Source: an uncultured Gammaproteobacteria bacterium
GTDB taxonomy: Bacteria > Patescibacteriota > Patescibacteriia > Magasanikbacterales > UBA922
Assembly: GCA_964592785.1 (NCBI GenBank)
Contig: CAZQHU010000006.1
Span: forward strand, 1-56,701
Length of the DNA: 56,701 nt
Direction of reading: 5' to 3'
This document shows positions 1 through 22,010 of the stretch, one piece after another. The notes below the pieces were generated by a model. That model saw nothing but the letters and a program-made list of their open reading frames with translations, did not search any database and had not been told where the DNA came from. The first letter of the stretch is position 1; each line of letters opens with the position of its first letter. The position numbers and the translations under genes are program-made.

Positions 1-908
<908 letters not shown>

Positions 909-982: not shown

Positions 983-1221
983 CTGTCCAAAATCTCTTGC
1001 CACAGGTAAACTATAATTTTTATAAATTACCTGCGACCGAAGATTTGAGTTAAAAAAAGACCGCTTCCAAGCGGTCAATTTGACAAAAAAATTTGTCGGC
1101 CTAAGCGCTTGGATTAACTGAGTATAATTTGCTAGAAGTAAACATTGTGGTTTATCTAATTTTATATACCCAGAGGTCCAAGGATATTAGGACATGGTGC
1201 AATCATTTCAGATGCCTGACA

Positions 1222-1250
1222 ATTTTACTATATAAGAAAAACCCTGTCAA
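1222..1250 (-). promoter_or_regulatory. sigma70 promoter upstream of 23S
   Basis: TTGACA (1250-1245), 17 nt, TAAAAT (1227-1222). Confidence 0.75.
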
Positions 1251-1301
1251 GAGGGTCTTCTGTGGATATATAGGGGATAAAAATCACCAAGAAACCAGAG
1301 T

Positions 1302-1574
1302 TCATCTAGCAAAAATTACTACACAATTTCCTACCCCTTCCGCAACATCCTCCACCAAGGGATGTTTTTTTAAATAATCCAGTACTTCCTTTCGCAACTT
1401 CCCTGTGCCAAAACCATAAATTATTCGTACCATGGTTGCTTTTTCTTGATAATTTTTATAAAGAAAAGACTCCAAATTTGCCAGCGCTTCCTCAACATAA
1501 AAACCATGCAAATCCAACTCTGGCATCATCGCGCCCAATTCAACTGCAAAAATTTTGGCTTCTTTGTCGTTCAT
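1302..1574 (-). CDS. Stand-alone Smr-domain protein
   Basis: ELDLHG motif and RIIYGFGTGKLR (Smr consensus IIHGxG); 90 aa. Confidence 0.85.
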   Translation of the reverse strand: MNDKEAKIFAVELGAMMPELDLHGFYVEEALANLESFLYKNYQEKATMVRIIYGFGTGKLRKEVLDYLKKHPLVEDVAEGVGNCVVIFAR

Positions 1575-1777
1575 AATCTACTATTTACTTTTAAAATCAT
1601 TATCCTTATAATAAATACATTAAAATAGTTTCTGAATGGCATTTATTACTTAAATAATATCATAAATAAACTAAATAATTAACTAGTTCGGATATAACTT
1701 GTTGTCTGAAATAGCAAAAAATCTTTTTAAGAATTAATTTTGGATTTTTTTATTTTGGATGCAAAAATTTTAAAAAT

Positions 1778-2389
1778 ATGGGCAACGAATTAACAAGTGC
1801 GCTTGTGCTGGGTCTAATCGGTGGGGTAATTCCGGGACCGGTTTTAACGGCCACATTTACCGAAATTTTACAGTCCGGTATTCCAAAAAGTATGCGGATA
1901 ATTTTATGGGCGATGTTTACTGAAACCGTCGTTGCCCTAATAAGTTTATTGGCACTTTCATCAATGAATTTTTCTGAGAGCTTTTTTCAAGGTCTTTCGA
2001 TAATCGGCGCCGCCATCCTAATTTGGATTTCGACTTCGATATGGAAAGTCCACAAAATTGATAATGAGGAAAAAGTCCATTTCAGTCTTGGAAAAATATC
2101 AGCGATGATAATGGCGAATGGGGTGTTGTGGACTTTCTGGATTACCGTATGTGTGCCAAAAGCGATATTACTTAGTGAAAAGGTGGCTTTTGGCAACTAT
2201 CTTTTTCTACTACTCGTCGAAATCGGATGGCTAATCTCAACTGTCATGGTTGCGGTGGTATTTTCACGATTCAGAAAAATTCTTTCTAATCCAAAGGTTG
2301 TGCCAATTATTTTTAAAATTTTTGCTCTGACATTCATGTATTTCGCTGTCGATATGGTTTATCGTAGCATCAAGTTTTTCCTGACCTAA
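1778..2389 (+). CDS. LysE-family translocator (cassette 1)
   Basis: N-terminal GLIGGVIPGP motif, about six hydrophobic helices, 203 aa. Confidence 0.8.
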   Translation: MGNELTSALVLGLIGGVIPGPVLTATFTEILQSGIPKSMRIILWAMFTETVVALISLLALSSMNFSESFFQGLSIIGAAILIWISTSIWKVHKIDNEEKVHFSLGKISAMIMANGVLWTFWITVCVPKAILLSEKVAFGNYLFLLLVEIGWLISTVMVAVVFSRFRKILSNPKVVPIIFKIFALTFMYFAVDMVYRSIKFFLT

Positions 2390-2441
2390 AAAAATAAAAA
2401 AATCCAAAATTAATAATAAAGAGGAAAGATTTTTCGCTACA

Positions 2442-2595
2442 TCAGACAACACCGAATATGAGGTTCAAAAAATTTGCGTCATTTAATAATCAGCGGAGTG
2501 CAAATTTTTCTCAACCCAAATTTTTGCCCTTTTTCTCTATTGATATATAATAGGGAGGCGGGCAAAAACTTCTCATATTCGGATACGTTATGTGA
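2442..2595 (+). repeat. attC-like site 1
   Basis: TCAGACAAC-ACC-GAATATGAG ... CTCATATTC-GG-ATAC-GTTATGTGA, with two internal hairpins (AAAAATTTGC/GCAAATTTTT and TTTTTGCCC/GGGCAAAAA). Confidence 0.7.
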
Positions 2596-2646
2596 AATAT
2601 TTTTATTTCTACCAATAAATACAATAATAAAGAATAATTTTATTTT

Positions 2647-3162
2647 ATGCCGATAGACCAAAACACAACAGTCCAAGTCATAACCACTACTCAAATTATT
2701 GGCATAGGTGGAGTCTCAGCGATAGCTGGAAGTTTTTTTACACTGGCAGGCATAGGTTTAAAATCATTTTTTGAAGCAAAAGAAAACAAAAAAACAAGAT
2801 TGTTTGAAGCCAGAAAAAATGCTTACTCAAAATTAATAGGTCATTTAAACAATTCTTTTGCAAAATATGAATTTACGGTAGCAAATTATGACCCAGAAAC
2901 AATTTTAAAATCCCTTACAGCATATTCTATTAATTTAGATTATGAGTTTGCCGAGGCATTACTTTTTAGTAGCAATAAAGTAATGCTAAAAATAGAAGAA
3001 TACAGAAAAAAAATATATAGTTTAAAAAGTGCTGTTTTAGCAGATGCACATGAACAAAAATTACAAGTAACTTTTCACAAAAGAGTAGAAGAATCCCAAC
3101 AAACTCATAATGTTGCAAAAGAATTAATCAAAATGATGCGCGAAGAATTGGAAATAAAATAA
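2647..3162 (+). CDS. Hypothetical protein with N-terminal TM helix and helical C-terminus (cassette 2)
   Basis: 171-aa ORF; hydrophobic IIGIGGVSAIAGSFFTLAGIGL; very AT-rich. Confidence 0.7.
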   Translation: MPIDQNTTVQVITTTQIIGIGGVSAIAGSFFTLAGIGLKSFFEAKENKKTRLFEARKNAYSKLIGHLNNSFAKYEFTVANYDPETILKSLTAYSINLDYEFAEALLFSSNKVMLKIEEYRKKIYSLKSAVLADAHEQKLQVTFHKRVEESQQTHNVAKELIKMMREELEIK

Positions 3163-3209
3163 AATTATAAATTGATCAAATTAAATTTATTAATAGAAAT
3201 AAAAATACA

Positions 3210-3827
3210 TCACATAACACGGTATATCTGGCTACACTTTAAAAAATATTTGTAATTTATTTAATAAAAATATATGACAAAAAAATTTCTTCCAATCTTA
3301 CTACTATTTCCATTATTACTAACTGGTTGTAGTTTAAAAACAAACGAGGTAGAAAATGATACCAAGGCGTTTTCGTTAAAACAAGAATGTTTTAAATACA
3401 AAGAAGGCATACAAAAAGAATTTGATAATTTCAACACAAAACAACAACCCCAAGAAAGAGCTGACAATGATGGTTCTACTAGAAAATGTTATGAAAACAA
3501 GGAATTGAAAGAAATTTTTTATAGTAATAAACTCAATTCATGTGCACAAGTAGAAGTCCAAAAAACTTATTGCAACACACCTGATATGAAGTCTTATGGG
3601 GTTTCTTATGAGTACAACATACTTTCTAATGTTCTTACTGGAGAAACACTAGAATATATAAAAACAATTTCTCGTGGGGAAGGTTTTGAAACCCCACAAA
3701 GAACAAAAGAAATAATTGATAGCTATAGATAAATTACAAATATTTTTAGTTCCGCCCATATTTCGCGCACACAAGATAATAATTTAAGGAGTGCGCGAAA
3801 CATCAGATATACACGAACGTTCAGTGA
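3210..3827 (+). repeat. attC-like site 2, split by an inserted gene
   Basis: Left arm TCACATAAC-ACG-GTATATCTG (3210-3230); right arm CAGATATAC-A-CG-AAC-GTTCAGTGA (3804-3827). Confidence 0.6.
3274..3732 (+). CDS. Putative lipoprotein (inside attC-like site 2)
   Basis: Signal peptide with lipobox LLLTG-C; 152 aa with several Cys. Confidence 0.75.
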   Translation: MTKKFLPILLLFPLLLTGCSLKTNEVENDTKAFSLKQECFKYKEGIQKEFDNFNTKQQPQERADNDGSTRKCYENKELKEIFYSNKLNSCAQVEVQKTYCNTPDMKSYGVSYEYNILSNVLTGETLEYIKTISRGEGFETPQRTKEIIDSYR

Positions 3828-3842
3828 CATACCCAAAAAACC

Positions 3843-3870
3843 AAAAATACTCTCTGATGAGAGTATTTTT
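3843..3870 (-). terminator. Intrinsic terminator downstream of tRNA-Leu
   Basis: AAAAATACTCTC-TGAT-GAGAGTATTTTT. Confidence 0.7.
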
Positions 3871-3876
3871 ATTATG

Positions 3877-3958
3877 TGCTGGCGGAGAGACTCGAACTCT
3901 CAATCCTTGCGGAACGTGCTCCTAAGGCACGCGTGTATACCAATTCCACCACGCCAGC
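3877..3958 (-). tRNA. tRNA-Leu(TAG)
   Basis: GCTGGCG acceptor, anticodon arm CGTGC-CT TAG GA-GCACG, long variable arm, TTCGA T-loop; CCA not encoded. Confidence 0.96.
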
Positions 3959-3979
3959 ATATTTAATTGTACTTATTTT

Positions 3980-4060
3980 AAGCAAGCGTGTATACCCGCC
4001 CGCCATCACAAGCATGAGCTTGCTCAGGCGTTGCGGGCGGGCCAATTTCGCCACCGCGGC
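3980..4060 (-). pseudogene. tRNA-Leu-like 5' half with a 47-nt palindrome in the D-loop
   Basis: GCCGCGGTGGCGAAATTGG[insert 4041-3995]TATACACGCTTGCTT, then AT-rich sequence; no 3' half seen in the window. Confidence 0.6.
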
Positions 4061-4195
4061 TTTTAACTGCGATATTAAACCACAAACTAGAAAAAAAATC
4101 AACCCGCCGATGAGGCGGGTTTGACTTTATAAACTTTACCTGCCCGCTCGTACCTCGCATGGTAGGCGGGTGGACTTTTTACTTTTTGAACTCAA

Positions 4196-6478
4196 TTACC
4201 GATCCCTCTTAAAAAATCCACCGCGTTTTCTGTCACCACCGCGATCATTGCCACGACCACCTCGATCAAAACTACGTCCGCCACCATCACGAACAAAAGG
4301 TGCTGGAGGCACATAGCCTTCTGGCTTAGGTTTAAGAGCCTTGATAGAAAGATTAATACGTCCCAAGTTATCTATTTCCTTTACTTGTACTTTTACTTTA
4401 TCACCAAGATTCAAGATATCACCTGGTCGGCCGACACGATTCCAATCAATCTCGCTCACATGGACTAGTCCATCTTGACCAGGAAGAATCTGCACAAAAG
4501 CGCCAAAATCTTCCAAACGAACAACTTCACCTTCATAAATTTCTCCGGCAGTTACTTCGTGAGTAATATCATTGATAATCTTGATAGCTTTCTTCATCGC
4601 CTCGGCATCTACAGAAGTGACCAGCACTCGGCCATCTTGTTCAATATCAATGGAAACTCCTGTTTCCTCGGTAATCTTTTTGATAGTCTTGCCACCCGGG
4701 CCAATAAGGTCGCCGATCTTCTCTGGATCGATGCGCACTGTTTCAATACGTGGGGCATAAGGAGAAAGTTCCTTTCTCGGTTCAGCAATCACACTGGACA
4801 TTTTTTTCAAAATTTCCAATCTAGCATCTTTGGAACGCTTAAAAGTTTCTTCCACAATTTCCCAAGTCAGTCCATGAGTCTTGGTATCCATTTGAATAGC
4901 AGTCACCCCATCCGCAGTACCAGTAATTTTGAAGTCCATACCGCCAACTCCATCTTCCACATCTTGTAAATCAGTCAAAACTTTCCAATTTTTTATATTG
5001 TATTTTTCATCCATTTCAGAAGCCAAACCCATGGCAATACCAGCTACCGGTTTTTTGATTGGTACACCAGCTGCCATAAGTGACAAGGAAGAACCACAAG
5101 TAGAAGCCATAGAAGATGAACCATTTGAACCCAAAACTTCAGAAACCACCCGAATGGCATAGGGAAAATTTTCTTCTTCTGGTAAAACGGGTTCCAACGC
5201 TCTCTCGGCCAAAGCTCCATGACCGATCGCTCGTCTACCCAGTCCTCCAATGCGACCAGTTTCGCCGTAGCTATATGGAGCATCGTTATAATGATGCATA
5301 TAACGTTTGGTTCCTTCTTCTTCCATACTATCCAAGGTTTGCACATCTCCAGGAGCACCCAGAGTGACAATCGACAAAACTTGGGTATCGCCTCTCATAA
5401 ACATTCCTGAACCATGAACACGGGGCAAAAGATCAACTTCTACTTCCAAATTACGAATTTCATCGAGTTTACGACCATCCAATCTTTGATTTTTATCCAA
5501 AATTCTCTTGGTTATCTGCTCACAAACATATTCTTTCACTCTATCCAAAGCTGGTTTTTGCAAATCTTCTTCAAAACCCTGTTCGGTAAGAAGATCAACC
5601 AGACCATGTTTGATTTCGTCCACCATTTCCACTCTCTCAGTGCGAGAAATTTTTACAGAATTAAAAATCTTACTATCAGCCAAACTAGCAATATAATCTT
5701 TAGCAGTTTGTTTAGCTTGTTCAGCAGTTTTTTCTTTATCCTGAGCATCAGCCGAAGGATTCTCTCCCTCTTTGACCAATGAAATTTTTTCTTTGCCAAC
5801 TTCTGCTTGAATCTTATTAATAAAATCAATCACTGGTTGTAATTCTTGACAACCCCATTTCATAGCTTCCACTACTTTATTTTCAGATACTTCCCTAACA
5901 GCGGCCTCGGTCATAACCAATTTATCTGGTGTACCAGCCACTACTAAATCCAAAACATTTCCTTCCACTTGACTGTTCCCAAGATTCAAAATAAATTCCC
6001 CTTTTTCATCCAAACTAACCCGAGCGGCCGCGATCGGACCATCCCAAGGAATCGATGAAACTGCCAAAGCACAACTAGCACCAATAAGACCAACAATAGC
6101 TGGATCATTTTCACCATCAAAAGCCAAAGTGGTGACCACCACCTGCACTTCATTTCTAGTGCGGTCATCAAAAAGTGGACGAATCGCCCGATCAATAAGC
6201 CGTCCCGATAGGACCGCATCATCACTCGGTCGTCCTTCTCGTTTCACAAAACGTGAACCTTTAATTCTGCCGGCAGCATACATTTTTTCTTCAAAATCCA
6301 CAGTTAATGGAAAATAATCCAAACCTACTTTTTCTTCACTACTCTTGGTCACATTGACCATTACCACTGTCTCGCCATATTGAGCAGTACAAGATACAGT
6401 GGACAACAAAGCCAATCTGCCCATTTCTATTGAGAGTTCCCTGCCGCCCCAATTGAGCGACCATTTCTTAATGTTCAT
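4196..6478 (-). CDS. pnp: Polyribonucleotide nucleotidyltransferase (PNPase)
   Basis: FFPLTVD-like, RRAIGHG, SNGSSSMAS and GDMDFK-like motifs, KH and S1 domains, RGG-rich tail. Start trimmed to MNIKK at 6478. Confidence 0.98.
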   Translation of the reverse strand: MNIKKWSLNWGGRELSIEMGRLALLSTVSCTAQYGETVVMVNVTKSSEEKVGLDYFPLTVDFEEKMYAAGRIKGSRFVKREGRPSDDAVLSGRLIDRAIRPLFDDRTRNEVQVVVTTLAFDGENDPAIVGLIGASCALAVSSIPWDGPIAAARVSLDEKGEFILNLGNSQVEGNVLDLVVAGTPDKLVMTEAAVREVSENKVVEAMKWGCQELQPVIDFINKIQAEVGKEKISLVKEGENPSADAQDKEKTAEQAKQTAKDYIASLADSKIFNSVKISRTERVEMVDEIKHGLVDLLTEQGFEEDLQKPALDRVKEYVCEQITKRILDKNQRLDGRKLDEIRNLEVEVDLLPRVHGSGMFMRGDTQVLSIVTLGAPGDVQTLDSMEEEGTKRYMHHYNDAPYSYGETGRIGGLGRRAIGHGALAERALEPVLPEEENFPYAIRVVSEVLGSNGSSSMASTCGSSLSLMAAGVPIKKPVAGIAMGLASEMDEKYNIKNWKVLTDLQDVEDGVGGMDFKITGTADGVTAIQMDTKTHGLTWEIVEETFKRSKDARLEILKKMSSVIAEPRKELSPYAPRIETVRIDPEKIGDLIGPGGKTIKKITEETGVSIDIEQDGRVLVTSVDAEAMKKAIKIINDITHEVTAGEIYEGEVVRLEDFGAFVQILPGQDGLVHVSEIDWNRVGRPGDILNLGDKVKVQVKEIDNLGRINLSIKALKPKPEGYVPPAPFVRDGGGRSFDRGGRGNDRGGDRKRGGFFKRDR

Positions 6479-6588: not shown

Positions 6589-7107
6589 TCATTTTCTCTT
6601 ACCAAAATTTTCTGTCATTAAATATCTATCTTTATTTTTACTAAGATCGAGAAAATCATCAGCCTCATCAATAGTAAAATGCGAAGCGGTTTCGCCAAAG
6701 GCCACTATCTCCACTTGCTTGCCACTGCTCTTTTGTAAATATTCTACTAAAGGCAAATAATCACCATCACCGGAAACAATGACAATGGCATCCAAACTAG
6801 AAGCCAAACGAATAGCATCAACTGTTAGCCCCACATCCCAATCGGCTTTTTTCATGCCAGTGGAAAAAACTTGCAAATCTTTCTCCCGAGTTTCAATACC
6901 CAAATTGTACAAAGCATCAAAAAATGGTTTTTCATCTTTACTCTCCGTACTCACCACATAGGCAATCACTCGAATCTTTTTACGGCCAGCTACCGCATCT
7001 TCTACAATATTGCCAAAATTAACCTTGCGACCATGTAAATTTTTGGCGCTATAATATAAATTTTGTACATCAATAAACACCCCTACGCGTTGTTCGGGGT
7101 GTTTCAA
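6589..7107 (-). CDS. NYN-domain (LabA/DUF88, PIN-like) protein
   Basis: FIDVQN, KADWDVGLTVD and SGDGDYLPL motifs. Probable TTG start at 7107, just after the rpsO stop. Confidence 0.9.
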   Translation of the reverse strand: MKHPEQRVGVFIDVQNLYYSAKNLHGRKVNFGNIVEDAVAGRKKIRVIAYVVSTESKDEKPFFDALYNLGIETREKDLQVFSTGMKKADWDVGLTVDAIRLASSLDAIVIVSGDGDYLPLVEYLQKSSGKQVEIVAFGETASHFTIDEADDFLDLSKNKDRYLMTENFGKRK

Positions 7108-8625: not shown

Positions 8626-9297
8626 ATGCAAATCATTCCTTCAATTTTTGTTACTTCTGAAGCAGAATTTATAAAACAAATAAATGCTGTACAAAATATT
8701 GTTAAGCAAATACAATTGGATATTGCTGATGGAGAATTTGTACCCGCTCAAACTTGGGCTGAACCAGAAATTGTAGAACAAAATTGTAATATCAATGTAG
8801 AACTACATCTCATGGTAAAAGATGCTTGGCTAGAACTAAACAAATGGACTGCTGTAGAAAACATCAGTCGAGTCCTCATACACTTGGAATCAAAAAATCC
8901 TGAAAAGGCGCTGGCCTTTGCCAGGGACAATGATTGGCAAGTCGGACTGGTCTTGAATCCGGAAACCAAATTGTCTGACTTGGAAAAATACTTGGACAAG
9001 ATAGACAGTGTGATGTTTATGGGTGTAAATCCTGGACGACAAGGTCAAAAATTAATACCAGAAGTTCTCGAAAAAATAAAAGAATTTACTTCCCTAAACC
9101 CCACTATATTTACCGAGCTTGATGGCGGTGTCAGTTTAGAATACTTGCCTGAAATAGTCAGGAGTGATATCAAGGCCATTTGCCCAGGCAGTGCTGTTTT
9201 TGGTAATGAAAAAACCCCGGAAGAAAATATCAAAAGTATGCAAGAAATTATTAACAGGTTGACCTCAGACAAGAAACAAGATACAATTTCCAAATAA
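8626..9297 (+). CDS. rpe: Ribulose-phosphate 3-epimerase
   Basis: IIPSI, LDIADGEFVP, ELHLMV, FMGVNPG and LDGGV motifs. Confidence 0.92.
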   Translation: MQIIPSIFVTSEAEFIKQINAVQNIVKQIQLDIADGEFVPAQTWAEPEIVEQNCNINVELHLMVKDAWLELNKWTAVENISRVLIHLESKNPEKALAFARDNDWQVGLVLNPETKLSDLEKYLDKIDSVMFMGVNPGRQGQKLIPEVLEKIKEFTSLNPTIFTELDGGVSLEYLPEIVRSDIKAICPGSAVFGNEKTPEENIKSMQEIINRLTSDKKQDTISK

Positions 9298-16324: not shown

Positions 16325-17272
16325 ATGTCTAAAACCTTATCCAATTATTTGACTGAATTTCTTGAATACCTGGAGATCGAACGCAATCGCAGTGACAAAA
16401 CTTTACGCAATTATGATTTTTATTTAAAAAGATTTACTGGCTGGCTGGGAGGAGACAAAAACCCAGAAGCTATAGACGCAGAAAAAATTCGACAATATCG
16501 TCTCTGGCTCAATCGTCTGGTAGATAATCATGGTGAACCTCTGAAAAAAAATACTCAAAACTACCATCTTATTGCTCTGCGCTCTTTTTTGAAATATTTA
16601 GCCAAACGCGATGTCAAAACTTTGGCTTCAGAAAAAATTGAATTGATGAAAATGCCAGATCGTGATGTTTCTTTTTTGGAAGGTGGCGATCTTAGCCGAC
16701 TATTGGAAGCGCCTATAAAAGAAAATGTTGATAACCAACTTATTCGTTACCGCGACAAAGCCATCTTGGAAATGCTTTTTTCCACTGGACTACGCGTCTC
16801 TGAATTGGTTGGCCTGAAGAAAGATAATCTAAATTTGAATCGTGAAGAATTTACTGTCACTGGTAAGGGGCGCAAAGCCCGAGTAGTTTTCCTTTCCGAA
16901 CAAGCCAAATACTGGCTAAAAAAATATTTGGGAGTCCGCCAAGATCCCAATCCTTTTTTATTTATTTCTCACGATTTACGCAATAGCAAAGGTAAAAAAG
17001 AAGTGACCGATCAACCACTAACAACCCGTTCAGTGGAAAGAATCGTTCGCAAATATGCACGTAGCGCCGGTATCACCAAAGCTGTCACCCCCCACACTCT
17101 ACGCCATTCCTATGCCACTGATTTATTACAAAATGGTGCAGACATTCGAAGTGTCCAAACTATGCTGGGCCACAGCTCCATCACAACCACCCAAATTTAT
17201 ACCCATATTACTGATAAAGAATTGAGAAATATTTACAAAAAATTTCATGGGAAAAATAGAGGAAATAATTGA
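16325..17272 (+). CDS. XerC/XerD-like tyrosine recombinase
   Basis: SAM-like N-terminal domain; TGLRVSEL, GKGRKAR, HTLRHSYAT and LGHSSITTTQIY catalytic motifs. Confidence 0.93.
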   Translation: MSKTLSNYLTEFLEYLEIERNRSDKTLRNYDFYLKRFTGWLGGDKNPEAIDAEKIRQYRLWLNRLVDNHGEPLKKNTQNYHLIALRSFLKYLAKRDVKTLASEKIELMKMPDRDVSFLEGGDLSRLLEAPIKENVDNQLIRYRDKAILEMLFSTGLRVSELVGLKKDNLNLNREEFTVTGKGRKARVVFLSEQAKYWLKKYLGVRQDPNPFLFISHDLRNSKGKKEVTDQPLTTRSVERIVRKYARSAGITKAVTPHTLRHSYATDLLQNGADIRSVQTMLGHSSITTTQIYTHITDKELRNIYKKFHGKNRGNN

Positions 17273-21556: not shown

Positions 21557-22010
21557 TTATAAATTTATAATTTTTAATTTTAAATTTTTAAACAATCCCT
21601 AATTTTTAATTTTTAAACTATGTGTAATCTTGCTAAAAATCAAAGACAACTCATTCGCCTCTTTCCAAATTGTTCTCAATTCCACTTTAACTTCCGGATT
21701 AACTTCAGCCAAAAGTTCTATCCAATACTTAGTTTCTTGTATTTCTTTTCTAACAATATAAATCTTATTTTTAAAATCATTCCTGGAAACTCCAGCATTT
21801 GCTTCCCTATAATTCGCTCCCACACTTGTACTAGAACGAAGTAACTGATTAATTATATTTTGATTCAAAGCATGAAACTTTAAATTTTTAATTAGAGCAA
21901 TAACTTCCTTACTAAACTTCAAAGTACGTTCTTCCAAATCGTATTGCATAATTAAAAATTTTTTAATTCAAAATTGTTTAAAAATTAATAATTAATAATT
22001 AAAAATTAAA
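21557..22010. mobile_element. Heptamer-repeat inverted-repeat element carrying a four-helix-bundle gene
   Basis: Perfect 14-bp IR AATTTTTAAACAAT (21583-21596) / ATTGTTTAAAAATT (21973-21986) embedded in (T/A)AATTTT repeats. Confidence 0.6.
21599..21949 (-). CDS. Four-helix-bundle protein (23S rRNA IVP / Avd-like family)
   Basis: DLEERTLKFS, QLLRSSTSVGANYREA and ETKYWIELL motifs; 116 aa. Confidence 0.92.
   Translation of the reverse strand: MQYDLEERTLKFSKEVIALIKNLKFHALNQNIINQLLRSSTSVGANYREANAGVSRNDFKNKIYIVRKEIQETKYWIELLAEVNPEVKVELRTIWKEANELSLIFSKITHSLKIKN

Follow-up and report, generated by a model that had tools for sequence, protein, structure and literature searches.

Long inverted repeats box the genes of an integron-like cassette array in a CPR bacterium

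The 56.7-kb stretch of DNA analysed here (the window) carries a compact array in which a LysE-family exporter gene and two further ORFs, orf2 and orf3, are set among attC-like sites (Table 1). The region has a GC content of 31–34%. The array is made up of two units, cassette 1 and cassette 2, of which the second has its boundaries placed, by analogy with the first, at the crossover points of attC-like sites 1 and 2. Exact-protein look-ups for orf2 and orf3 returned no record, and a scan of the region against Rfam families (gathering threshold and E<=1) found only tRNA-Leu and 23S rRNA in or near it.

Table 1. Features of the cassette array, in window coordinates
Feature	Position	Strand	Basis
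Promoter-like TTTACT-17-TATAAT, possible array promoter	1584..1612	+	consensus scan only
attI-like half-site TTCGGATAT-AACTT-G, before first crossover G1701/T1702	1687..1701	+	likeness to conserved site
Cassette 1 left arm	1701..1757	+	repeat search and gapped pairing
Cassette 1, 886 bp: left arm, LysE ORF, right arm, attC-like site	1702..2587	+	alignment breakpoints
LysE-family exporter ORF, 203 aa	1778..2389	+	Pfam PF01810, E 1.5e-08
Cassette 1 right arm, beginning one base past the stop codon	2391..2450	+	repeat search and gapped pairing
attC-like site 1	2442..2595	+	structural scan, 0 mismatches; hairpin in predicted ssDNA folds
Promoter-like TTGCCC-16-TATAAT, in loop of attC-like site 1, upstream of cassette 2	2524..2551	+	consensus scan only
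Cassette 2 left arm	2587..2648	+	30/34 plus 15/15
Cassette 2, 1232 bp: orf2 in body, orf3 in attC-like loop	2588..3819	+	crossover points, by analogy with cassette 1
orf2, 171 aa, no family assignment	2647..3162	+	family searches
Cassette 2 right arm, covering the orf2 stop codon	3154..3218	+	repeat search and gapped pairing
attC-like site 2, ORF in loop	3210..3827	+	structural scan
orf3-boxing stem, left arm, pairing with 3726-3747 (21/22)	3242..3263	+	repeat search
orf3, 152-aa predicted lipoprotein, LLTGC lipobox	3274..3732	+	sequence; lipoprotein-family matches weak
orf3-boxing stem, right arm, overlapping the stop codon	3726..3747	+	repeat search
Terminator-like hairpin closing the array, then tRNA-Leu(TAG) at 3876-3958 (-)	3842..3871	.	

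Both cassettes are laid out in the same order. The left arm of cassette 1 starts with the core GTTGTCTGA (1701-1709) and continues through an unpaired AA (1710-1711) into a cassette-specific stem; its right arm ends with CA (2440-2441) and the inverse core TCAGACAAC (2442-2450). This inverse core is R'' of attC-like site 1, and is followed by an A, L'' CCGAATATGAG (2452-2462), a 109-nt variable loop, L' CTCATATTCGG (2572-2582), ATAC and R' GTTATGTGA (2587-2595). In turn, R' is the core that opens the left arm of cassette 2, ahead of the AA mismatch (2596-2597) and a stem running over the orf2 start codon (2647), and the right arm of cassette 2 contains CA (3208-3209) and the inverse core TCACATAAC (3210-3218). 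The second attC-like site consists of R'' (3210-3218), L'' GTATATCTG (3222-3230), the loop with orf3, L' CAGATATAC (3804-3812), the spacer ACGAAC and R' GTTCAGTGA (3819-3827). The L boxes pair 11/11 in site 1 and 9/9 in site 2.

An earlier note on this DNA had described each cassette gene as boxed by its own inverted repeat, and the blocks it listed were reproduced exactly: 23/26 bases pair in the outer block of the LysE cassette (1701-1726 with 2425-2450), 23/23 in its inner block (1734-1756 with 2391-2413) and 30/34 in cassette 2 (2587-2620 with 3185-3218). The pairings stand, but the length of 34–56 bp assigned to the arms was too short, and once gaps are allowed 1701-1757 pairs with 2391-2450 in cassette 1 and 2587-2648 with 3154-3218 in cassette 2, where an extra block (2634-2648 with 3154-3168, 15/15) spans the start and stop codons of orf2. 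The ends of each cassette pair over about 60 bases, five times the length in ordinary integrons. The two cassettes also have the mismatch in common that had been described, GAAATA on the left facing GATGTA in the reverse complement of the right. Absent from that account was orf3, which is likewise boxed (21/22, z 6.7) by a stem that, in the predicted fold, extends the rod towards the loop.

The three longest repeats found by an inverted-repeat search of positions 1000-4300 are the arms of cassettes 1 and 2. When the same AT-rich flanks were shuffled 1000 times with their dinucleotides preserved, the arms of cassette 1 scored 73 versus 20.7 +/- 3.3 (z 15.7) and those of cassette 2 scored 50 versus 22.0 +/- 3.6 (z 7.9). 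The highest shuffled score was at most 37, so the observed scores were never reached in the shuffling that had been proposed as the test of a chance origin. Among the 54 ORFs of the window, whose median score is 18, the two cassettes rank 1st and 3rd.

The LysE unit is a discrete mobile cassette with a G/TT crossover that occurs in different arrays. It recurs in five contexts across differing CPR lineages, with proteins 90–99% identical. On its left, the window and the related loci L001, L002, L003, L004 and L006 diverge exactly before TTGTCTGA; on its right, the window and L003 diverge exactly after ...GGATACG/TT. We count the mobility of the cassette unit as shown, together with the anatomy, generality and covariation described below, the dependence of the arms on the cores and the contrast with classical integrons, and the earlier reading of both window units as integron-type cassettes is supported. 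The slot in which the array lies (Smr / array / tRNA-Leu / PNPase) carries other cassettes in a related Magasanikbacteria genome; the nearest PNPase relative is only 65–69% identical, and at that distance the slot is filled by other cassettes. The circle junction ...CATATTCGGATACG/TTGTCTGAAATAGC... (G2587 joined to T1702) was found in none of the JGI metagenome contigs, which is weak evidence either way.

Comparison with homologues indicates that it is the cores, and not the gene, that the arms accompany. LysE copies that lack cores have no arms, while the gene persists at 82–92% identity. Homologues of orf2 (57–83% identical) came from a larger protein search, none being present in species-representative genomes, and lie in ordinary operons with neither core nor arms; eight of them gave arm scores of 13–21. 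They are the second genes of their operons, whereas orf2 stands alone between its arms. Classical integrons differ as well: at most 27 was scored by 12 class 1 cassettes, with 11–12 nt paired, and the 223 cassettes of a Vibrio VCR control had a median of 11 nt, with 0.9% reaching at least 30. The figure of about 7 bp previously quoted as the need of classical cassettes does not hold for these controls, in which own-end complementarity is about 11–12 nt (12 class 1 and 223 Vibrio cassettes).

The same architecture extends over a family of related cassettes. In the 21 cassettes delimited by independently detected sites, the only unbiased set, the arms had a median score of 36 and a median length of 28 nt, and 57% scored at least 30, compared with 0% of non-self arm pairings. 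This self versus non-self test bears out the previous description of the arms as cassette-specific, beginning at the core and running inward. Covariation was examined in 27 cassettes chosen for carrying repeats: 92.3% of cells pair versus 61.2% in shuffles, and 212 cells show double changes versus 68 (0/500 shuffles as high), while slid registers pair at just 36–48%. Orthologous LysE arms, in cassettes 8–10% diverged, carry concerted changes within a genome that keep the pairing. The mismatch reported for the two window cassettes proved more general than that, since every family cassette compared (27/27) has AA/CA after its 9-bp core; being invariant, it is part of the site. It also accounts for an apparent wobble bias of the bottom strand (72 versus 25), which gives G.T and A.C counts of 16 versus 17 when the mismatch is removed. 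Long arms occur in only about one-third to one-half of the family cassettes and so are not obligatory.

The arms had also been regarded as unrelated between cassettes; they are cassette-specific but not wholly private, and 'chassis' types with common motifs (GAAATAGC..., ...TTTTTGGCAATTT) are shared across the family. Near-identical arms (96–98%) flank unrelated ORFs. Between loci L034 and L059, for example, the likeness stops at the start codon and returns at the stop codon. The 3' break falls within about 3 nt of the stop codon in the four pairs examined, and the 5' break falls at the start codon or, in other pairs, 7–17 nt before it. In many cassettes the stop codon lies within the repeat, with TAAATTGCCAAAAA pairing with TTTTTGGCAATTTA. 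The attC-like sites of the family (n=60) have a median length of 125 nt (IQR 118–177 nt), and a sense ORF occupies the loop in 9/10 of those exceeding 250 nt; such loop-borne ORFs are boxed too. ORF-less hairpins bounded by GTT...AAC are more frequent in arrays (0.13 versus 0.03 per kb), and those seen are perfect palindromes without the AA/CA mismatch. Where a gene is inverted within its cassette, the polarity of the arms follows the site and not the gene. A conserved Shine-Dalgarno-like TAAGGAG lies in an unpaired bulge of many right arms.

No array-type recombinase is present in the window, in which tblastn found no integrase remnant; the only tyrosine recombinase there (16325-17272) is of the housekeeping XerC/D-like type and 29% identical to the array type. 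In a related locus (JAHFJA010000006, L004:2504-3313), a 270-aa tyrosine recombinase is encoded divergently to the array, and 403 relatives of it were found in species-representative genomes. The array-linked enzyme matches TIGR02249 at 202 bits (cut-off 265) in two stretches, shares the C-terminal RSPL and is without about 50 residues present in IntI1. Integron integrases have an additional IntI-specific domain near patch III; the array-linked enzyme lacks this insertion, and no such integrase adjoins the window array. Related loci do have an attI-type site beside the integrase together with a co-oriented, divergent array: in about 40/56 loci the array-linked integrase has, about 100 nt upstream, a conserved attI-like site, ATATnCGAAaacacTTCGnATATaaacgaGTT, with a core motif after it, and the core motif occurs within 330 nt upstream of the integrase in 48/56. 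Just half of such a site (1687-1701) is found in the window, namely the right half, the upstream half of the dyad being missing. In the related loci, 88% of array-side ORFs in the first kb are on the opposite strand to the integrase, and boxing repeats surround 17% of array-side ORFs (34% within 1 kb) versus 1.4% on the other side. Nothing relevant on integrons or arrays of cassettes in CPR/Patescibacteria came up in searches of the accessible literature, and the nearest published match is the 'Cand' subgroup of Xer-related recombinases (PMC8138268).

As in integron cassettes, each unit consists of one promoterless-looking ORF and, behind it, an imperfect hairpin site that has AAC...GTT ends. 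Units are bounded at G/TT, the first bases of a cassette are complementary to its own R'', and the same cassette can occur in different arrays. The cassettes of an array likewise share one orientation and diverge from a tyrosine recombinase, beside which an attI-type site is found. An attC site is defined as an imperfect repeat, R''(RYYYAAC)-L''...L'-R'(GTTRRRY), of 57–141 nt, in which structure is conserved. The family sites have AAC/GTT ends, paired L boxes and an asymmetric spacer, and like attC they combine variable sequence with conserved pairing over about 80–180 nt, but their R-box consensus differs (GTTNNNNGA in place of GTTRRRY). Further differences from integrons are own-end complementarity of 20–75 nt as against about 11–12 nt in class 1 and Vibrio, the invariant AA/CA mismatch on the cassette side of the core, a bulge between R and L boxes of 1–3 versus 4–6 nt, an ORF inside the loop in about 15% of sites, and a linked recombinase without the IntI-specific insertion. 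The window array, with its two complete sites, attI-like half-site and no array-type integrase in the window, resembles a CALIN (a cluster of two or more attC sites without an integron integrase nearby), except that its sites are not canonical attC; its assignment to this class depends on counting them as attC.

Other systems match in part. During CTX-phi integration a folded single-stranded hairpin, attP(+), is reportedly used by XerC/XerD, as Val and colleagues are said to have found in 2005. A Xer-type recombinase without the IntI domain and a long imperfect ssDNA hairpin that mimics a duplex site with a mismatched centre are common to both cases, the folding being predicted only in ours; however, cassette arrays, a dedicated recombinase, an attI-like site and many hairpins of conserved shape are found here, and there is neither a dif site nor a phage. 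Mobile insertion cassettes and MITEs similarly place a single passenger gene between inverted repeats with conserved tips, but the present units do not run from repeat to repeat, have no target duplications and lie in a recombinase-array context. The pdif modules of Acinetobacter plasmids are also intervals bounded by inverted half-sites, with genes in both kinds of interval and a Xer-like enzyme implied. In contrast, the complete sites here are direct hairpin repeats with variable inner boxes, and pdif modules have nothing that corresponds to the long cassette-specific stems. When the aligned sites were inspected for dif-like Xer sites, no 11-6-11 dyad was seen and the L boxes differed between sites; the arrangement of Xer/dif modules (28-bp sites with 11-bp arms and a 6-bp centre in alternating orientation) was not found.

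On balance, we favour the view that the inverted repeats are the cassette-side continuation of a folded recombination site, in an integron-like system specific to CPR bacteria. In the predicted ssDNA fold of the array strand, at -152.5 kcal/mol (z -9.6), the cassette stem is present, and the circle junction is predicted to fold as one rod; the earlier proposal that each ORF loops out on its stem agrees with these folds. Each cassette begins with the TT of a core (GTTNNNNGA), stops at the G of the following core and carries at its 3' end an attC-like hairpin of the order R''...AAC, 1–3 nt, L'', loop, L', 4–6 nt, GTT...R'. Because its 5' end is complementary over about 20–75 nt to the sequence that separates the stop codon from R'', the whole non-coding part of the cassette could zip, as a single strand or excised circle, into a long imperfect rod. 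The crossover box would lie mid-rod, the pairing broken just inside the 9-bp core by the invariant AA/CA mismatch, and the ORF or ORFs would form terminal loops.

Integron recombination uses a folded bottom strand, on which extrahelical bases set the polarity. We infer that comparable folding takes place in vivo here, in which case the long stem may clamp the core into a stable, correctly registered duplex on which a Xer-like recombinase without the IntI-specific domain would act, and the invariant mismatch and asymmetric spacer may give polarity as extrahelical bases do in attC. As long as the array is linear, the core halves that form this stem are also needed for folding the attC-like hairpins on either side, so that the stem could hinder a reaction and not help it. 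The arms probably also record the origin of cassettes by insertion of ORFs into a conserved hairpin 'chassis' at its loop. A broader proposal, that these arrays represent a distinct, widespread CPR class of platform with a short Xer/IntI-like recombinase, a rod of the entire non-coding cassette DNA as substrate in place of a small attC hairpin (a 'dumbbell' circle whose end loops are the ORFs) and new cassettes made from ORFs cut at their start and stop codons and slotted into the hairpin chassis, is put forward tentatively.

The arms may instead be mainly a historical footprint, left when an ORF was cut at its coding limits and put into the loop of a hairpin chassis, or when one flank was copied by fold-back, with no role of their own. 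This has a lesser but real chance of being correct. It would fit the near-identical arms around unrelated ORFs with breaks at or near start and stop codons, the stop codons inside the repeats, the lone position of orf2 between its arms in contrast to the operon setting of its homologues, the boxing of ORFs in attC-like loops and the enrichment of ORF-less GTT...AAC hairpins in arrays. A pure relic should decay, however, and the LysE arms change in concert, with pairing at 92% in the family; the ORF-less hairpins are not simply empty cassettes, given that they lack AA/CA; and ORF-precise insertion has no known mechanism, nor was one found here. As an account of origin, the footprint is compatible with the folded-site explanation. 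The two possibilities raised in the earlier note, an extended recombination substrate and a trace of how cassettes are made, both agree with the data, and each gains indirect support, from the arms accompanying the cores and from the breaks flanking the ORFs.

A role in RNA, in which the flanks of an ORF pair within one transcript (for example, as RNase III sites like those around rRNAs) to release, stabilise or translationally control mRNAs, appears unlikely. Each left arm has a promoter-like site before it (1584-1612, 2524-2551), which could allow transcription of the arms; terminators are predicted nowhere within the array, the arms abut start and stop codons, and TAAGGAG in the unpaired bulge is conserved. 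Yet the arms vanish without recombination cores although the gene stays, and the invariant mismatch and the core are DNA-site features common to the attI-like site. Mismatches that would be G.U-compatible in the sense strand are no commoner than A.C, so selection on an RNA stem is not indicated; moreover, the cassette 2 stem would bury the start codon, the arms around inverted genes keep the polarity of the site, and no Rfam family matches. That the boxed genes are non-autonomous transposons of the mobile insertion cassette or MITE kind, with a transposase acting in trans on terminal inverted repeats, is very improbable. The flanking repeats do resemble those of IS families, with tips that are conserved and inner parts that vary, and there is no transposase inside, but the mobile unit extends 137 nt farther than the right arm, ending at the following G/TT, and these breakpoints led us to reject a TIR transposon. 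Neither target-site duplications nor direct repeats occur at the ends, complete sites are directly oriented in arrays beside a tyrosine recombinase, and the inner L boxes vary in sequence yet pair, which is typical of structure-specific sites. Chance matching in AT-rich spacers can be practically discounted: the region is AT-rich, but the shuffles never reached the observed scores and dozens of unrelated cassettes have the same architecture.

Integrons are a main route of gene capture in bacteria, and their IntI-specific domain is thought essential for function. The array-linked recombinase is without that domain, and the family of cassette arrays is found in hundreds of species-level CPR genomes. 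Together these arrays constitute a widespread, apparently undescribed integron-like system of CPR bacteria, one that may show how cassettes are built; the making of cassettes and the reach of integrons beyond Proteobacteria are the questions they touch. The family offers natural material for asking how far attC recognition is pure structure, and the ORF-precise junctions in shared hairpin chassis make the genesis of cassettes directly testable. CPR hosts have tiny genomes and natural DNA-uptake machinery, and the LysE cassettes document recent gene flow across distant lineages of this group. If the rod and chassis reading is true, the arms would serve as the substrate of the reaction and at the same time document directly how cassettes arise, a problem unsolved for integrons generally.

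Copies of a 9-bp core motif, GTTNNNNGANATA or its complement, lie at 1701, 2450, 2587, 3218 and 3819, each one inverted relative to the copy before it; they delimit cassette 1 (1702–2587, holding LysE) and, by analogy with it, cassette 2 (2588–3819, holding orf2 and orf3). Between each right core and the following left core sits a pair of outer inverted boxes: CCGAATATGAG (2452–2462) with CTCATATTCGG (2572–2582) in site 1 (11/11), and GTATATCTG (3222–3230) with CAGATATAC (3804–3812) in site 2 (9/9). Because of this placement, 2442–2595 and 3210–3827 are laid out like integron attC sites, in the order R''...AAC, short spacer, L'', loop, L', longer spacer and GTT...R'. A conserved non-coding motif, C(A/C/G)CCCAAATT, lies in the 3' half of attC-like loops of the family, with the window form CTCAACCCAAATTTTTGCCC (2505–2520). 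The GC content of the stretch holding the three ORFs is 31–34%, versus about 40% in adjoining DNA.

Array layout and surrounding features in the window
Feature	Coordinates	Strand	Remark
23S rRNA gene, 5' part	1–908	-	window start
Smr-domain ORF	1302–1574	-	
LysE-family exporter ORF	1778–2389	+	
orf2	2647–3162	+	
orf3, predicted lipoprotein	3274–3732	+	
Terminator-like hairpin			after orf3, before tRNA-Leu(TAG)
tRNA-Leu(TAG)	3876–3958	-	
PNPase gene			next after tRNA-Leu(TAG)

Beside the array, 15 nt from within tRNA-Leu (GCACGCGTGTATACC, 3927–3941) recur 55 nt off at 3982–3996, next to a GC-rich hairpin (4000–4075); the minus strand here resembles the 5' portion of a second tRNA with an interruption in its D loop. 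ARAGORN and Rfam made no call at this tRNA-like stretch near 3982–4075, which could be the remains of a tRNA or a scar left by integration.

LysE homologues of 60–99% identity are spread over many lineages of the candidate phyla radiation (CPR), and the flanks of the window copy are also present at other loci (L001/L002, L003, L004 (JAHFJA010000006) and L006). In an alignment of these cassettes (A1), similarity breaks off on the left directly before TTGTCTGA, where five contexts have five distinct upstream sequences, and on the right directly after ...CATATTCGGATACG, followed by GTTATGTGA in the window and GTTGTGCAAAA in L003. Since similarity breaks at these points, the mobile unit is 1702–2587, comprising the ORF and its downstream hairpin site, with the same G|TT cut as in integrons. 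A transposon with terminal repeats was rejected, as the bounds of this unit differ from those of the inverted repeats. The window PNPase is closest to that of Candidatus Magasanikbacteria (65–69% identity), and in a Magasanikbacteria genome (L112) the Smr/tRNA-Leu slot contains an attI-like site and two different cassettes, one of them boxed; the window site is therefore an old cassette locus whose content turns over.

Further features of these loci were recorded. Direct repeats of the tRNA-Leu 3' end and terminator hairpin in L112 (about 8655–8700 and 9235–9275) enclose a pair that, going by its protein sequences, is HicA/HicB-like; this arrangement is the hallmark of a small tRNA-integrated island, here adjoining the cassette array. 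The Smr-domain gene (11013–11276 in L112) takes the recombinase's usual place and divergent orientation beside the attI-like site in both genomes, a position that could reflect plain synteny or a role for the nicking endonuclease. On an Uhrbacteria scaffold (L006), nt 1–58 recur at 2496–2549, after three cassettes and directly before an N run, so that the cassette order closes on itself; tandem duplication, a circular molecule with several cassettes or an artefact of scaffolding could each account for this.

The sole tyrosine recombinase of the window (16325–17272) is XerC/D-like, and the window holds no array-type recombinase, the 270-aa Xer/IntI-like enzyme encoded beside related arrays. In L004, where the gene is divergent to the array, the XerA and integron-integrase models score about equally and both below cut-off, identity is 29% to IntI1 and 29% to the window Xer, and the IntI1-type C-terminal RSPL is present while the ~50-residue IntI-specific insertion is absent. 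Relatives of 58–77% identity (n = 403) were found in species-representative genomes, nearly all of them CPR. A conserved dyad followed by a core (ATATnCGAAaacacTTCGnATATaaacgaGTTNNNNGAAAT) lies ~100 nt upstream of the recombinase gene in roughly 40 of 56 loci, and the core alone within 330 nt of it in 48 of 56; this is an attI-type site, and window 1687–1701 matches its right half only. Within the first kb of the array side, 88% of ORFs are co-oriented, pointing away from the recombinase. Recombinases 62–63% identical to the CPR array type also occur on contigs assigned to archaea (L056, an Altiarchaeales MAG that also has an attI-like dyad, and L070, a Methanosarcinaceae MAG), reflecting either cross-domain spread or mis-binning. 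In co-assembly MAG sets, many contigs with cassettes or recombinases (L003, L008, L014, L022, L030, L031 and many more) go under the labels 'uncultured Gammaproteobacteria', 'Bdellovibrionales' or 'Bacteroidales'; these labels are probably wrong, because the genes and repeats of the contigs resemble those of CPR contigs.

The ORFs of both window cassettes are boxed by long inverted repeats, or arms. The pairings in the earlier note, 1701–1726 with 2425–2450 (23/26), 1734–1756 with 2391–2413 (23/23) and 2587–2620 with 3185–3218 (30/34), proved exact to the base on recomputation, as did the mismatch common to both cassettes after the core (GAAATA in the left arm, GATGTA in the right arm once reverse-complemented), and a repeat search returned them as the three longest inverted repeats within 1000–4300. 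Gapped pairing lengthens these arms to 1701–1757 with 2391–2450 and to 2587–2648 with 3154–3218, the latter including a 15/15 block that spans the orf2 start and stop codons. An origin by chance in AT-rich spacers, for which the note had proposed a shuffling check, is rejected: against dinucleotide-preserving shuffles of the same flanks, the arms of cassettes 1 and 2 reach z = 15.7 and 7.9, and 0 of 1000 shuffles approach the observed scores. The LysE and orf2 flanks rank first and third among 54 window ORFs, and orf3 is likewise boxed (3242–3263 with 3726–3747, 21/22, z 6.7). The second-highest flank score, which low complexity may inflate, belongs to a 61-nt AT-rich inverted repeat (21562–21622/21947–22007, 77%) enclosing a 116-aa four-helix-bundle gene (21599–21949, minus strand) of a type known from 23S rRNA intervening sequences (by eye), placed between paralogous pilin-like membrane protein genes.

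Complementarity in classical cassettes exceeds the ~7 bp given in the earlier note, and the CPR arms are several times longer than any match in these controls. Twelve class 1 cassettes, drawn from three plasmids, have 5' ends complementary to their own R'' regions for at most 11–12 nt (top score 27); among 223 Vibrio superintegron cassettes, a core-anchored match was found in 174, with a median of 11 nt (10th–90th percentile 9–13), and 0.9% score at least 30 and none at least 40.

Core-bounded boxing repeats, for which the note had proposed a survey of CPR genomes, recur in CPR recombinase loci and, as claimed, run inward from the core. In the 80 loci, flank scores of at least 30 were reached by 17% of array-side ORFs, rising to 34% within 1 kb, versus 1.4% on the other side. 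The right arm typically has its start at the stop codon or within it, and the left arm ends 0–60 nt upstream of the start codon. Aligned without gaps, 27 different cassettes show pairing in 92.3% of cells versus 61.2% when shuffled and 36–48% in slid registers, with 212 versus 68 double-change cells (0 of 500 shuffles as high); at the two positions that follow the core, 27/27 have AA in the left arm and CA in the right arm. This set was selected for repeats, and unbiased support therefore comes from 21 cassettes bounded by two independently detected sites, with pairing anchored at the core: the median score is 36, the median length 28 nt (IQR 21–57), and 57% reach 30. Pairing persists among orthologous LysE cassettes by way of matching changes in the two arms, such as GGAATAATTTT in both arms of L006 versus GGATTTTTTT in other genomes, or GCT in both arms of L003. 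Arms are absent from 22 LysE copies without cores, some of which retain fragments of one arm, and eight orf2 homologues (57–83% identical) in ordinary operons have neither core nor arms (scores 13–21). A separate, conserved palindromic element (…AAAATGAAATTCACCCCTnnCCCCTCTTTCATTTT…) lies just past the stop codon in several genes, both inside and outside cassettes (L004 at 4730–4790 and 7040–7100, L039, L062, L298, L304), including orf2 homologues in ordinary operons.

The stems, described in the earlier note as private to each ORF, are cassette-specific, as no pairing of a left end with another cassette's right end reaches 30, but they are not fully private across the family, in which arm types are shared. 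These types have GAAATAGCnAAAAAT beside the core and TTTTTGGCAATTT/AAATTGCCAAAAA beside the ORF, and their right arm has a bulge that resembles TAAGGAG; one has a leader, GGTCGAATAACT, between left arm and start codon. Ten cassette pairs have similar arms (76–98%) and unrelated proteins. Between L034 and L059, nucleotide similarity ends at the start codon and returns at the stop codon; the 3' break lies within ~3 nt of the stop in four pairs examined, and in other pairs the 5' break lies 7–17 nt upstream of the start codon. Such shared chassis suggest that the arms preserve, in addition, a record of cassette formation. Short ORF-less GTT...AAC palindromes show a fourfold enrichment on the array side of the recombinase; their pairing is perfect and, because the AA/CA mismatch is missing, they are not simply empty cassettes. 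Their form is GTTNNNNCAAAAT, a GC-rich loop (GGAGCGAAGCG-like) and ATTTTGNNNNAAC (L053, L039, L006 at 2322–2358, L003, L033 and others), and a subset sits after the attI-like site and ahead of the first cassette.

Predicted folding of single-stranded DNA, a further check named in the note, yields the cassette stem and the adjacent L-box hairpin in the array strand (−152.5 kcal/mol, z −9.6). When the cassette ends are joined, as in an excised circle, a single continuous rod is predicted, consisting of the cassette-specific stem, AA/CA mismatch, 9-bp core, asymmetric bulge, L box and structured loop; in cassette 2, orf3 occupies the far end, boxed by the stem's continuation. Other sites of the family share this layout: ten of 60 exceed 250 nt and nine of these ten have a sense ORF in the loop; in L004 a cupin ORF in the site loop is boxed by a 19-nt repeat.

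The best-supported reading, with function inferred from anatomy, makes the arms an extension of the folded recombination site that reaches into the cassette. The two cassette ends would clamp the crossover core within a long duplex, and the invariant mismatch together with unequal spacers would supply asymmetry, which in attC comes from extrahelical bases. Such a duplex would suit a recombinase without the IntI-specific domain, and the proposed site resembles the long hairpin used by XerCD in CTX-phi integration. In the linear array, the stem competes with neighbouring hairpins for core halves, and it could thus keep cassettes in place instead of promoting exchange. Alternatively, the arms might act in RNA, as long-range stems of a polycistronic transcript, and promoter-like sites do lie upstream of both left arms; this role is disfavoured because the arms track cores rather than the gene, the counts show no preference for sense-strand wobble (16 versus 17), and in cassette 2 the start codon would be hidden within the stem.

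As a kind of system, integron-type cassettes are already known. In the searchable literature we found no description of a CPR-wide platform with a short Xer/IntI-like recombinase, of extended cassette-specific stems with an invariant mismatch, of ORFs within site loops or of ORF-precise chassis junctions; what comes closest is a 'Cand' subgroup of Xer-related recombinases, taken as housekeeping in the paper concerned (PMC8138268). The broader CPR family is of more importance than the two window cassettes by themselves.
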